NCBI GenBank assembly: GCA_963675495.1
Contig: OY776215.1
Coordinates: 128,001-192,000 of the forward strand
From: an uncultured Methanolobus sp.
Lineage (GTDB): Archaea; Halobacteriota; Methanosarcinia; Methanosarcinales; Methanosarcinaceae
DNA length: 64,000 nucleotides
Direction of reading: 5' to 3'
Below, one piece after another: positions 21,716 to 25,719 of this stretch. A program made the position numbers and the translations under genes. The notes beneath the pieces were generated by a model. That model ran no database searches. It was not told the DNA's origin and worked only from the letters and a program-made list of their open reading frames with translations. The number at the start of each line of letters is the position of its first letter. Position 1 is the first letter of the stretch.

Positions 21716-23667
21716 TCACAGTTTGTTTTCTTTGATTTTCAAGAGATAAGTCCTGGCTCCGTTAGAAACAGCTTGCTCCCGGATGATAAGTTCATCATCC
21801 AAAAGCTTCGATACAACTCGGGAGCATTTACGACTGTCTATATCAAGCAGTTTTCATAGTTCATTCTGGAAAATACCTTCTTTACTATCTCGAATAATAT
21901 TAAATGCGTCTTCCTTGATGGCATCACTTACTTCTTCTGATTTTGGAATTTTGCTAATATTGGATAGTGGCAATTTAACTATTGGTGAAACAATGAGCAA
22001 TTTGTCATAGTCTAACTCATCTAAAGAATATATTTTAGCATTTTCTGAATTGAAAGATTCGTCTATGTTAAAACATCCGTACTTTAAAAGTTCAATTAAT
22101 TTTGTTTGTTCTGACCAATATGTCAACTTAGAATTATCTTTTATTCCTTCTATTGTAGACTGTTGATTTAAGGCGATTTTTTGTAAATAATGGAACAATG
22201 CTTTGTTTGAAGCAAGATGAGTTATTAATAATGGCCATTTTATACTTATAGCAATAAACTTGGCAAGTTTTTTTGTATTCCATCTTTTTTCAATTGTCGC
22301 TTTTTTATTATAAACAAATAAGTTTGTTTCCATTGATATATACAATTTAAGCCGGAGTAAATTAATGAACTGTTTTAAACGTCGTGGGTTATTGTCTAAA
22401 GCATCAGAAACCATACTAATTAATTCTGTGAATGAGTTATCTTCTTCTCCAGTTTCTATTTTTTCACAAGCTAATAAATCTTTAAACTCTTCGTCTAGTA
22501 TTCTATTAGAACTTTTATTAATTTCCTCATAATCATCTTCATCCAATTGATTTGCTTTTGGACTTGTTTTTTCATCAGGTAAACAACTATTAAGTTTATC
22601 AAGAAATTCTGTTATGCTTTTTTCATCAGGTTGCGGTACTAAAAATGGGATTTGAATAAATTTCTCTATAAATTCGAAACCATATTCTAAACCTTTTAAC
22701 GAAAGATTGCTGGTATTTGCAGATTCGGTTATAGAATTATTTGGATAAAGGTATGGTAGCAATTTTTCATTTTTAGCTGCAATACCTGCAGCTATTTTAG
22801 TTCTATCCATTCCTATTATGAAAATTAGATTTGGACTATCATCTATTAACATGTTTATTGCACGCATTAATTCAACAGCTTTTGGAATGTCACAACGATC
22901 CAAATCATCTATAAAAATGTAAACTCTTGAATTATCAGAATAAGCAGATACTATGTTAGCAAAATCATGATGAAGTTTTTGAATAAACTCTGTATGGATT
23001 TCATAATCAGGCGATGTTAAACATTTATTTAGATCAACTTCCATAGATGTATCAAAAAAGTTCCGAATAGTATCACTGAATGAAATAATAATTCCCAAAG
23101 ATGCAATGATACCTATTAAAGTCGTAAATAACGTTTTATCACTTAATGCATCACTAATTGCTTTAACTAAATTTTGAATAGAGAATGAATATTGTGATAA
23201 GAACAGAATTATCACAATGATGATACTAGCTAAAGAAAGTAAAAAAATTGAAACTCTTATTATTTCGAAAATGAATTTTTTAAGTTAAGTCTTAATCGCA
23301 GCAATCTAAAATACCCTTTTAAACGTCCTTTGTTTGATGTTTTTTCGGACAGTTGTGATATCAAATCTGAAATGAAGGTTGCCCAGAGTGCTTCTGCTTT
23401 ATCATGTCTCCATGCATTAAAATGTACAATTTTTCCATTTTTATCTTCAATTTTATCTTCTAGTTGTAGAATAAAAGAAGATTTGCCACTTCCCCATTCT
23501 CCTTCAATGGACATAGTAACGGGTGGATTTGTATTTTTATTTGTAAGGAAATCTACGATTGCCTTAACATACGGCTTGAAACCTAGTAGATCTTCTCTTG
23601 TAGCTAAATCATTAATATTCGAAGGCGATATTTTGGTAGTATTTAATTTATTCAACAATTTCACCAT
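21716..23667 (-). pseudogene. KAP-family P-loop NTPase with two TM helices and C-terminal wHTH; frameshift plus nonsense codon
   Basis: Walker A GEWGSGKS, FNAW, Walker B IFIDDLDRC, EKFIQIPF, NNPRRLKQFIN; frameshift ~23265; TGA at 21854-21856 followed in frame by KLLDIDSRKCSRVVSKL...RTYLL. Confidence 0.8.
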
Positions 23668-23784
23668 GATGATTGATTATAAATTCAGCCTAACTATTTT
23701 TAAAATGCAATTCTCTTTTAAAAGTCTGTCGAAATTAAAAAGGATTAAATTGACTGGGTGATAGTCACATTCCTATACAATACC

Positions 23785-23792
23785 CTTAAATA
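23785..23792 (+). promoter_or_regulatory. TATA box of the ilv leader transcript
   Basis: CTTAAATA ending 25 nt before the uORF ATG, implying a leaderless start. Confidence 0.55.
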
Positions 23793-23816
23793 CCACTTCC
23801 ACCCTCCAATTAAATA

Positions 23817-23885
23817 ATGTCTTACCCTACCTCAACTCGCACTTTACGCAATGTGTCTGTAGTAGTGGTAGTGTTACACGCTTGA
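23817..23885 (+). CDS. Val-rich leader peptide MSYPTSTRTLRNVSVVVVVLHA upstream of acetolactate synthase
   Basis: GTG TCT GTA GTA GTG GTA GTG TTA codon run; TGA ends 103 nt before the ilvB ATG. Confidence 0.75.
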   Translation: MSYPTSTRTLRNVSVVVVVLHA

Positions 23886-23927
23886 GCACGATAATCGGAA
23901 CTTTTCTGGCTCAAGTGCGCTGTTTTT
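23879..23927 (+). terminator. Attenuator-like hairpin plus U-tract overlapping the leader stop codon
   Basis: CGCTTGAGC (23879-87) pairs with GCTCAAGTG (23909-17); TGTTTTT at 23921-27; competing pairing CGCACTT (23838-44)/AAGTGCG (23913-19). Confidence 0.6.
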
Positions 23928-23988
23928 GGTTAATTTACTGATTAGTGTATCCTGTGTCGGAATTGTTTCTTTCCACGGAGAATTGAAA

Positions 23989-25719
23989 ATGGAAGAAATG
24001 AATGGAGCAGAGATCTTAGTTAAAAGTCTGGAGGACCTTGGGGTCAAACATATCTTTGGTTATACGGGAGCGGCAATACTCCCGGTATTCCATGCGCTTG
24101 AGCAGAGTGATATTGAGATCGTAGTCAATTCCAACGAGCAGTCATCGGCGTTCAGTGCAGCGGGGTATTCCCGGTCAAGCGGCGAGGTCGGTGTAGCCAT
24201 AGTCACATCCGGACCTGCAATTACCAACACACTCACTAGCGTTGCTGATGCTTTTGGTGACAGCATTCCTATGCTTGTTTTTGCAGGGCAGGTCCCCGAG
24301 CATAAGATAGGCACCGACTCTTTCCAGCACATCAATGTCAAGGGAGTCTTCGGGGATGCAGCCAAGAAGGTTATCCAGCTATCCAATGACGATGACATCG
24401 AAGCAATAATCAAGGACGCCTACTATTTTGCAATGTCTGGGAAACCAGGGCCTGTTGTCATAGATGTTCCTCTGGACAAACAGCAGAAGATGCATGAATA
24501 CCAGGATATGAACGTCCTGAGATTCGAGGAAAGTTACCACGATGACCGGCACCTATGCGAAGAACAATGTGAAGAGTTCTTCCAGATGTTCCTTAACTCC
24601 AAAAGACCGCTCCTCTATCTGGGTGGTGGTCTGAACTCAGAAGCAGGAAGTCATGCTATCAGGGAGTTCAATGAGTATTTCGGGGTTCCTTCAGTTAATA
24701 CTCTCATGGCAAAAGGTGTCGTTGACGAACGAAAAGACCTGAACCTCGGGATGCTGGGGATGTTTGGCACACCATCCGCTAATATGCTCATACAGGAGAA
24801 CGATTTCTTCTTCGCCATTGGTGTCCGCTGGGATGACAGGGTTGCGGAAAAGGTCGGGTTTGCAATAGGCACCGACATAGCCTACATCGATATAAATCCC
24901 GAGAAGATGCACCAGATAAAGATAGAACGAGGACCTAAATTCTCATTTATCGGGGATTCTGCCACAGCTATACGGGACCTGCTGAACTATGCTAAAAAGC
25001 ATAGCATCACATTGAATATCCATGATTGGCAGGAACGTGCCAGATTCCTGAAGAGGTCCTGGCCTCTGGATTACAACCGACAGTCCCAGCATATCCAATC
25101 AGCCGAGGTCATGGCACTGCTGGCAACTTATGTTGACGGGAACACAAGGATAACCACAGGTGTCGGCAATCACCAGATGCTGGCCGCACAGCACCTTCCA
25201 ATGCAGAAGGCAAAATCCTTCATGACCTCTGGCTCCTTTGGAACAATGGGCTTTTCCATGCCAACGTCCATCGGTGTTCACTATGCAAACCCGGATTCAA
25301 AGGTTATTGCCATCGATGGTGACGGCAGTCTTAGAATGAATCTGGGAGAACTGCACACTGTTGCTTCACTGGACCTGCCCATCAAGATACTCATGCTGAA
25401 CAACAGGAGTGACGGCATGGTTCAGAACCTGCAGGATGCGGCTTATGATGGAATTCGTACCGGAACACAAAGACCAAAGGATGTTCACTTTGCTGAGATC
25501 GCAAGTTCATTTGGCTTCAGTTATGCAGAAAGGATAAGCGACAGAAGTGATTTAAAAGCCGGTATGGAAGCCTTCCTTAATGCAGACGGACCTTGCTTCC
25601 TGGAAATCTGCACGGATAGGGAAGAAATTCTGTATCCAAAGGTTCCGGCAGGTGGAGCATATAAGGATATGATATTGGGGCCGTATATTAAGGAGGTACC
25701 CGGTAATAACATCGAGTGA
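23989..25719 (+). CDS. ilvB: Acetolactate synthase large subunit-like ThDP enzyme
   Basis: MNGAEILVKSL, TSGPAITN, GTDSFQ, GVGNHQM, GDGSLRMN...LNN ThDP motif; GGAG RBS at 23977. Confidence 0.88.
   Translation: MEEMNGAEILVKSLEDLGVKHIFGYTGAAILPVFHALEQSDIEIVVNSNEQSSAFSAAGYSRSSGEVGVAIVTSGPAITNTLTSVADAFGDSIPMLVFAGQVPEHKIGTDSFQHINVKGVFGDAAKKVIQLSNDDDIEAIIKDAYYFAMSGKPGPVVIDVPLDKQQKMHEYQDMNVLRFEESYHDDRHLCEEQCEEFFQMFLNSKRPLLYLGGGLNSEAGSHAIREFNEYFGVPSVNTLMAKGVVDERKDLNLGMLGMFGTPSANMLIQENDFFFAIGVRWDDRVAEKVGFAIGTDIAYIDINPEKMHQIKIERGPKFSFIGDSATAIRDLLNYAKKHSITLNIHDWQERARFLKRSWPLDYNRQSQHIQSAEVMALLATYVDGNTRITTGVGNHQMLAAQHLPMQKAKSFMTSGSFGTMGFSMPTSIGVHYANPDSKVIAIDGDGSLRMNLGELHTVASLDLPIKILMLNNRSDGMVQNLQDAAYDGIRTGTQRPKDVHFAEIASSFGFSYAERISDRSDLKAGMEAFLNADGPCFLEICTDREEILYPKVPAGGAYKDMILGPYIKEVPGNNIE

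Follow-up and report, generated by a model that had tools for sequence, protein, structure and literature searches.

A conserved valine-codon leader before an orphan acetohydroxyacid synthase gene in Methanosarcinaceae: a candidate archaeal attenuator

Leader-peptide attenuation is the textbook case of control by coupled transcription and translation. In the trp, his, ilvBN and ilvGMEDA leaders of Escherichia coli, a short open reading frame (ORF) with a Shine-Dalgarno sequence (SD) carries a run of end-product codons near its end and has its stop codon in or beside segment 1 of the leader RNA; segments 1:2, 2:3 and 3:4 overlap, and 3:4 is the terminator, a hairpin with U8. Bacterial RNA polymerase responds to hairpins. 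In E. coli pyrBI the position of the ribosome on the leader ORF prevents a hairpin, the signal being UTP-dependent pausing, and in ermC a ribosome on the leader ORF frees a hidden start site, the signal being antibiotic-induced arrest. Closest to the locus treated here are the ilvBNC attenuator of Corynebacterium glutamicum, described in the accessible part of its source with the leader peptide MTIIRLVVVTARRLP and a three-hairpin model (PMC11857589), and the mycobacterial polycysteine short ORFs (the 'Cys ribulon', bioRxiv 10.1101/834739). As far as the literature was searched, leader-peptide attenuation has been described only in bacteria so far: no archaeal example was found by a search that had subscription journals and closed supplements outside its scope, which agrees with an earlier note, made from sequence alone, that considered the mechanism poorly documented in archaea. 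The DNA in question (the window) is a stretch of 64,000 nt from an uncultured Methanolobus sp. (contig OY776215.1, positions 128,001 to 192,000), and the element is a short upstream ORF (uORF) with a run of valine codons, followed by a gene for the large subunit of acetohydroxyacid synthase (AHAS; also acetolactate synthase, ALS). The presence of this leader was confirmed as real and far from chance.

The valine uORF and the gene behind it

The promoter, uORF and gene are arranged in the window as follows.

23786..23793, forward strand: TATA-like box CTTAAATA, at which all sequence conservation among relatives starts.
23817..23885, forward strand: uORF of 22 codons plus stop, MSYPTSTRTLRNVSVVVVVLHA, with ATG at 23817 and TGA at 23883-85; predicted to be leaderless.
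23859..23873, forward strand: run of five Val codons, GTA GTA GTG GTA GTG, with one further Val codon at 23853-55.
23989..25719, forward strand: stand-alone AHAS/ALS large-subunit paralog of 576 aa, with Pfam TPP_enzyme N, M and C.

The uORF of the earlier note was reproduced in the window sequence, with six Val codons of which five are consecutive (codons 15-19), and so was the start of the gene (ATG 23989) 103 nt past the uORF stop; the gene has an SD, GGAG, at 23977-80. The TATA-like box that had been placed before the uORF is also present, but the gap to the ATG is 23 bases and not 25.

The upstream regions of all 62 copies of the paralog recovered from the family (see below) were extracted and aligned (alignment A1). 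An ATG-initiated uORF is retained in 60 of the 62 leaders, with lengths of 22 codons (22 leaders), 23 (5), 24 (12), 25 (5), 26 (2), 27 (12), 30 (1) and 35 (1). All eight length classes are in frame, every internal length change being a multiple of three, and the end is the TGA inside GCTTGAGC, except in L046, which stops one codon earlier at TAA. The two leaders lacking the ATG (L055 and L060) still have an open frame, with GAGGAGA a few bases before an in-frame ATT. The distance from the uORF stop to the gene ATG, on the other hand, takes 12 values between 92 and 131 nt, with remainders of 0, 1 and 2 modulo 3, so that no frame spans this part of the leader on either strand. The earlier proposal of a Val-run uORF at the predicted 5' end of the transcript is thus borne out to the extent that its frame stays open in 8 genera and that every change of length preserves it.

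Each of the 60 uORFs has 5-9 Val codons, with 5-9 lying within the last 12 codons, and the last Val is always 1-3 codons before the stop (60/60). Codons 17-18 are Val in all 22 members of the 22-codon class, substitutions within the run are limited to L, I, A or T, and Val codons outside the paired core (see below) vary synonymously among GTA, GTG, GTT and GTC. The remainder of the peptide is poorly conserved: there are 57 different peptides among the 60, and outside the Val run and helix arms the 22-codon class shows 968 nonsynonymous against 372 synonymous codon differences. Judged from these sequences, the pattern is that of a leader peptide, as opposed to a protein with an independent function. 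The conserved run of Val codons with synonymous variation is what the earlier note had wished to see in the upstream regions of relatives. Between the Val run and the gene ATG, mean pairwise divergence (561 pairs of the 34 sequences with a full gene) is 0.137, compared with 0.478 at four-fold sites of the gene; it is 0.45 between TATA box and ATG and 0.306 in the 5' part of the uORF.

No SD was seen 5' of the uORF ATG in the leader alignment. The TATA-like octamer ends 22-26 nt before this ATG in 55 of the 62 leaders as scored by script, and, by eye, also in L001, L016, L027 and L068, where the script had mis-picked an A/T match or missed a variant; the exceptions are L008, L055 and L060. In Methanolobus psychrophilus, the accessible part of the report (PMC5378194) places promoters about 19-22 nt from mapped transcription start sites and classes about 16% of transcripts as leaderless, with a 5' untranslated region of less than 10 nt. 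Given this promoter distance (PMC5378194) and the TATA-ATG spacing found here, the transcript is predicted to start at or near the uORF AUG, i.e. the uORF would be leaderless. Leaderless small ORFs that are translated have been reported from Methanosarcina mazei, again according to the accessible part of the source (PMC11456600).

Nothing alignable was found among relatives 5' of the TATA box, and the flanks of the cassette differ among species up to this box and again directly after the stop codon. Between TATA box and ATG (23794-23816), most leaders contain a C-rich stretch (e.g. CCACCTCC), which we take to resemble the 16S rRNA 3' end. The region between TATA box and ATG is a frequent binding place of archaeal repressors. 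Overall, this region diverges about neutrally (0.45, see above).

The gene behind the leader matches best the biosynthetic acetolactate synthase large subunit family TIGR00118, with 492 bits, which is below the curated cut-off of 538.35, and its best PDB matches are all AHAS catalytic subunits. The host genome (2.87 Mb, one contig) carries a second AHAS copy, ilvB, which is 36% identical to the paralog and scores 867 bits on TIGR00118; behind it come ilvN (223 bits on TIGR00119) and a third ORF. This ilvB-ilvN pair is located elsewhere in the genome and has no Val-uORF leader. Profile scans of the neighbourhood of the paralog detected no ilvN-like small-subunit ORF. Since the other copy scores higher and precedes ilvN, and no small-subunit ORF is found near the paralog, the leader belongs to an orphan AHAS paralog and not to the housekeeping ilvB. 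The earlier note was therefore right as to the AHAS family, but not in taking the gene for that of the first enzyme of the main ilv operon. Some paralog copies contain in-frame stops, five in G083 (G083:C88:12636-14341) and one each in G012 (L027), G067 (L041), G054 and G090; these copies retain a recognisable leader.

Paired regions of the leader RNA

The paired regions, the U-run and the gene start have the following positions.

23827..23871, forward strand: helix P0 in the uORF, CUACCUC (23827-33) with GUGGUAG (23865-71), which pairs codons 4-6 with the core of the Val run.
23879..23917, forward strand: hairpin P1, CGCUUGAGC (23879-87) with GCUCAAGUG (23909-17), loop of 21 nt, enclosing the uORF stop.
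23897..23969, forward strand: long-range fold P2, 5' strand 23897-23920 (GGAAC...UGGCUCAAGUGCGC) with 3' strand 23945-23969 (...GUAUCCUGUGUCGGAAUUGUUUC).
23923..23927, forward strand: U5 run starting 5 nt after P1 (TGTTTTT at 23921-27), a candidate archaeal termination or pause signal.
23965..23999, forward strand: possible sequestering hairpins, GUUUCUUUC(CA) with AUGGAAGAAAU, the latter being the gene start codon and codons 2-4.

The 9-bp hairpin with one G.U described earlier, which spans the stop codon and is followed by UGUUUUU, is present as P1 (DNA arms CGCTTGAGC, 23879-87, and GCTCAAGTG, 23909-17). Across the 62 leaders 96.6% of its cells are paired, 5 of the 9 pairs never vary, and the uORF stop (TGA, 23883-85) is invariant within the 5' arm. 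Covariation in P1 amounts to one compensatory change of G-C to A-U (L014), with G.U pairs in L023 and L024, and the predicted probability of P1 in the free RNA is 0.98 (mean of the 62). A distal mini-stem in the P1 loop, taken in the register of the window, is paired in 76.2% of cells, and one of its pairs is open in 55 of the 62; this reflects a problem of alignment register. In the 30 nt after P1, 53 of the 62 leaders have a run of at least 5 T; the longest is 4 in eight leaders and 3 in one.

RNAalifold applied to alignment A1 returned P0 and P2 together as the consensus. The P0 consensus is CUACCAC:GUGGUAG, from which the window copy departs by one U.U mismatch; over its 7 pairs 97.5% of cells are paired, and one pair has changed on both sides. 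For P0 and P2 together (MAFFT alignment), 96.9% of cells are paired and 7 pairs, representing 25 cells, have changed on both sides, a level of pairing and covariation reached by none of 500 shuffles; slid controls were 30-69% paired. The outer helix of P2 (GAAAC/GUUUC) has undergone independent compensatory changes in three separate sequence groups, and compensatory changes are also seen in the UGGC/GCCR helix. The covariation that the earlier note had proposed to look for in relatives is accordingly found in P2, with a single change in P1. The apical part of P2, about 40 nt (UGUUUUUGGUUAAUUUACUGAUUAGUG), is almost invariant in 6 genera without any predicted pairing, and is substituted by other sequence in two genera.

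As both P1 and P2 use GGCUCAAGUG, they are mutually exclusive. The switchable hairpins of the earlier note hold in so far as P1 is one of two exclusive folds, but its true competitor, P2, lies past the U-run. The partner suggested at the time, CGCACTT (23838-44) pairing with AAGTGCG (23913-19), is complementary in the window but perfect in only 2 of the 62 leaders; as a conserved switch it was rejected, with 67.9% of cells paired and 432 of 500 shuffles equalling it. The P1/P2 two-state switch is well founded; what the switch controls is not.

Val codons in the 60 uORFs are 65% GTA, 29% GTG, 4% GTT and 1% GTC, compared with 29, 20, 34 and 18%, respectively, in long ORFs of the genome, so that GTA and GTG together make up 94% of Val codons in the uORFs versus 49% in the long ORFs. 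Pairing in P0 explains this bias only in part. The genome has single genes for tRNA-Val with anticodons TAC, CAC and GAC, and the leader may report on one tRNA-Val isoacceptor.

At the gene start, GUUUCUUUC lies directly behind P2. The start-codon helix is 93.1% paired with one double change, and an alternative SD helix, UCCUGUG (23950-56) with CACGGA (23974-79), which overlaps the SD GGAG (23977-80), is 85.8% paired. By sequence, then, complementarities to the SD and to the start codon appear to be conserved, and covariation gives them no support.

Distribution and genomic context

With a threshold of E <= 1e-130, 62 of 177 Methanosarcinaceae genomes proved to hold the paralog, and these belong to 8 of the 16 genera (g1 32/35, g25 11/59, g16 4/6, g18 4/13, g21 4/11, g23 4/11, g12 1/1 and g20 1/3). 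The whole unit, comprising TATA box, uORF and leader of about 100 nt, precedes the paralog in every one of the 62. In an even sample of the phylum the paralog occurred in 24 of 52 genomes of the family and in 0 of 349 others. When leader DNA was used as the query, 63 of the 177 genomes matched, namely the same 62 and one with a match of 37 nt.

A strict pattern scan across GTDB (one genome per species) returned 42 matches, the rough prior expectation being a few by chance. Forty are labelled as Methanosarcinaceae-type or as broader archaeal or metagenome sequences, and the genera among the pattern matches are Methanolobus, Methanosarcina, Methanococcoides, Methanomethylovorans, Methanohalophilus, Methanohalobium and unclassified Methanosarcinaceae. 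The other two (L078 and L081) share only the pattern with the leader and were dismissed as chance. Among 10 loci in a metagenome scan, the leader is present at all 9 close loci, and none was found at a bacterial-looking relative of 44% identity; with so few loci, the scan added little diversity.

The whole 2.87-Mb genome was also scanned for intergenic ATG ORFs of 8-50 codons with at least 5 of one residue in any seven. Of the 126 low-complexity candidates, this uORF is the only Val-rich one, and none made a convincing leader for another amino acid. One short ORF, MMNRYKHQEIIIIIY (G000:C1:2518840-2518887, outside the window), lies 46 nt 5' of another gene, the N-terminus of which is presumably hisD-like. 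It was rejected as an amino-acid leader, since its run consists of Ile and it contains a single His, and it is probably an A/T-rich chance occurrence.

Extra copies of the leader are found 5' of a gene for a DUF4386 membrane protein (G109, L034, L015 and L018), and a DUF4386 gene lies directly 5' of the AHAS leader in 4 of the 34 fully flanked loci. The copy in G109 (L124, G109:C4, minus strand, ~3950-3740) retains its TATA box intact, together with a Val uORF of 24 codons, P1 with one mismatch, and U5, and is without the P2 3' strand. The L034 copy (536-675) is decayed, with ATG changed to ATA and a broken U-run, and the DUF4386 gene of L015 and L018 is preceded by no more than a remnant of the 3' part of the leader. 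The DUF4386 gene of G109 has an in-frame TAG (L124 ~3620, minus strand) where relatives have CAG (Gln); either the gene is broken, or the TAG is a candidate for read-through or for coding pyrrolysine, in a family that uses Pyl. A second leader of the 27-codon type (as in g25 and g16) is located at a contig end (L125, G024:C268:1-260) in a g1 bin of 290 contigs, and may represent bin contamination or a transferred cassette.

Upstream of the leader in the window, adjacent ORFs on the minus strand at 21854-23215 and 23260-23667 match positions 96-287 and 1-86, respectively, of the KAP_NTPase profile, and together suggest a single P-loop NTPase gene that has been broken into two parts.

Proposed control, alternatives and described systems

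It appears rather probable that the leader is an archaeal instance of ribosome-mediated attenuation, in which the Val uORF reports tRNA-Val charging to the P1/P2 switch, and the switch sets expression of a second, probably feedback-free AHAS via the U-tract and/or access to the start codon; the device would have arisen independently in Methanosarcinaceae and would move as a cassette with its gene. For the more specific reading, a cis-acting, leaderless valine leader that is read by the translating ribosome and gives induction at low valine, we see about an even chance; it accounts most simply for the parts described above. Under this reading, transcription would begin at the uORF AUG or a few bases 5' of it, giving a leaderless mRNA, and a ribosome would read the 22 codons, the last third of which is the Val run ending 1-3 codons before a stop that lies buried in the P1 5' arm. 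If charged tRNA-Val were scarce, the ribosome would slow on the last Val codons and block P1; the freed P1 3' arm could then pair downstream in P2, leaving a full-length, translatable mRNA from which the orphan AHAS paralog is made. A ribosome that leaves quickly, or never loads, would allow P0 and P1 to form, and the polymerase would meet U5 behind a hairpin; the downstream strand would then be free to cover the SD/AUG region, and expression would be low. The output step would be termination or pausing at U5, or else initiation at the gene AUG. The folding calculations are consistent with the first part of this scheme, as masking a ribosome with its A-site on the last Val lowers the probability of P1 from 0.98 to 0.25, and with the A-site on the stop codon to 0.

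With regard to the U-run, U-tracts are a reported archaeal signal, so the run in the leader may terminate or pause archaeal polymerase (PMC8716108, as far as its accessible part goes).

A number of results weigh against the low-valine reading. The same source describes the archaeal termination signal as U-tracts of 4-7 with no requirement for a hairpin (PMC8716108), and in 9 of the 62 leaders the U-run is 4 or shorter. A scan for terminators of bacterial type found none in the leader; P1 with its U-run fails it because the loop is 21 nt and the U-run lies 5 nt past the stem. No conserved antiterminator was found 5' of the U-run by consensus folding with either P1 arm masked, and the 3' strand of P2 is transcribed after the U-run. 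As the competitor of P1 lies downstream of the U-run, P2 cannot act as a classical antiterminator. The bacterial ilv-type architecture claimed earlier is therefore retained in part, with the Val uORF, the stop hairpin and the exclusive folds present, but the antiterminator absent and the terminator scan negative. Nor did ribosome-masked folding open the gene start consistently among the 62 leaders: the unpaired probability of the AUG was 0.44 before and 0.51 after masking, with a rise in 19 leaders, a fall in 2 and no change in 41, and for the initiation region the two values were 0.63 and 0.60 (higher in 4 leaders, lower in 16). Pairing in P0, and not codon identity, explains at least partly why GTA GTG GTA GT(A/G) does not vary. 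The fold of the single leader sequence is not unusually stable (z = -1.29; -0.72 in a second run), and a search of 23500-24200 on both strands against Rfam 15 gave only chance-level matches (16.2 bits vs 50 and 11.8 vs 40), so that the case rests on comparison with relatives.

The RNA evidence consists of assembled Logan contigs; these carry no transcript start, end or level, and stretches left uncovered are uninformative. Metatranscriptome contigs of relatives, from two studies, bridge the leader and the gene start (23826-24011). One contig of a relative continues 255 nt upstream of the promoter, so that DNA carry-over is possible in these contigs. The source of RNA sets X1 and X2 is relatives, with a similarity of mostly 85-95%; set X4 has one contig, at depth 2, over 23782-23943, and no contig of X3 could be placed.

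A further difficulty is that a ribosome at the first Val of the run leaves the probability of P1 at 0.86. Because a stall this early leaves P1 free, the sequence does not reveal in which direction the response goes, and the same device could work the opposite way, as a sensor of coupling. Ample valine would then bring the ribosome to the stop in P1, giving read-through and P2, and scarce valine would stall it at the first Val codons, so that P1 forms and expression falls; the orphan subunit would be a valine-insensitive AHAS, induced when valine shuts the IlvN-regulated enzyme. Besides the difference in P1 probability between an A-site on the first Val of the run (0.86) and on the stop (0), the invariant stop codon within the P1 arm fits this version, as does the 27-codon class, where the Val run starts as much as 12 codons ahead of the stop, and there is no gene for a small regulatory subunit beside the paralog, ilvB-ilvN being elsewhere. 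To our knowledge, however, all characterised amino-acid leaders turn on at low supply. The ilvBNC leader of C. glutamicum does so according to the accessible part of its report (PMC11857589), the position of the last Val, 1-3 codons from the stop in 60/60 uORFs, fits a stall that covers P1, and the valine insensitivity of the paralog is a guess. We regard the opposite sign as unlikely.

If the leader were a structured RNA with P2 as its binding domain for a metabolite, tRNA or protein, in the manner of a riboswitch or protein-operated element, this could account for the location of the covariation in that fold (7 pairs with double changes, 0/500 shuffles), for the near invariance in 6 genera of the ~40-nt apical UGUUUUUGGUUAAUUUACUGAUUAGUG without predicted pairing, and for a Val-run core held by P0 pairing. 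The uORF would in that case be no more than a constitutive frame upstream of the gene, or would result from the constraints on the P0 and P1 sequences. This is difficult to reconcile with eight uORF lengths that are all in frame next to leader lengths of any remainder, with Val codons outside P0 that show synonymous variation but give way only to L, I or A, and with the gain of an SD-like motif in both ATG-less variants. Moreover, the apical part is swapped for other sequence in two genera and there is no Rfam match (the best has 16.2 bits against a gathering score of 50), so that such an RNA is judged rather improbable as the explanation. A functional hydrophobic micro-protein that is merely co-transcribed, such as an orphan AHAS partner or a membrane peptide, is very improbable, for although the frame is kept in 60/62, the C-terminal half is hydrophobic, and translated leaderless small ORFs occur in Methanosarcina mazei (PMC11456600, accessible part), residues outside the Val run and P0 arm drift at an approximately neutral ratio (968:372), there are 57 distinct peptides of 22-35 codons among 60, the hydrophobic stretch of 7-13 residues is too short to span a membrane, and the stop codon is locked in an RNA helix.

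The locus points to a second AHAS isozyme in methylotrophic methanogens. If attenuation by the Val uORF is true, it would also offer a compact natural test bed for functional coupling of ribosome and RNA polymerase in archaea, for the influence of RNA hairpins on archaeal termination or pausing at U-tracts, and for the way in which leaderless initiation feeds regulation, as well as a small, portable valine-responsive control element for the engineering of methanogens.

Among described systems, the ilvBNC attenuator of C. glutamicum, as presented in the accessible part of its report (PMC11857589), shares with the present leader a leaderless short ORF of Val, Ile or Leu codons before an AHAS gene (the leaderless start being predicted here), a hairpin within the ORF (H1 there, P0 here) with overlapping alternative hairpins, and conservation throughout a taxon. 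The two have no sequence relation. In C. glutamicum termination has been proven for the last hairpin, upstream of which the antiterminator forms (PMC11857589), whereas here the competitor of the stop hairpin lies downstream of the U-run, the polymerase is archaeal, and the leader precedes an orphan paralog with neither ilvN nor ilvC. The mycobacterial polycysteine ORFs, from what is available of the preprint (bioRxiv 10.1101/834739), are likewise leaderless sensory ORFs with a run of cognate codons, again with the leaderless start only predicted in the archaeal case, and they represent a translational version of the model proposed here, the last step of which may likewise act on translation. 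That system is bacterial, senses cysteine and was shown by mutation (bioRxiv 10.1101/834739), whereas start sequestration in the present leader is a conserved complementarity only, unconfirmed by the folding calculations. With the E. coli attenuators the leader has in common the terminal run of end-product codons, the stop in segment 1 and the overlapping segments; unlike them, it has the U-run behind 1:2 and would use 3:4 to cover the start codon. As in pyrBI and ermC, the position of the ribosome would itself decide the folding, but both of these are bacterial, and the signal proposed here is amino-acid supply.

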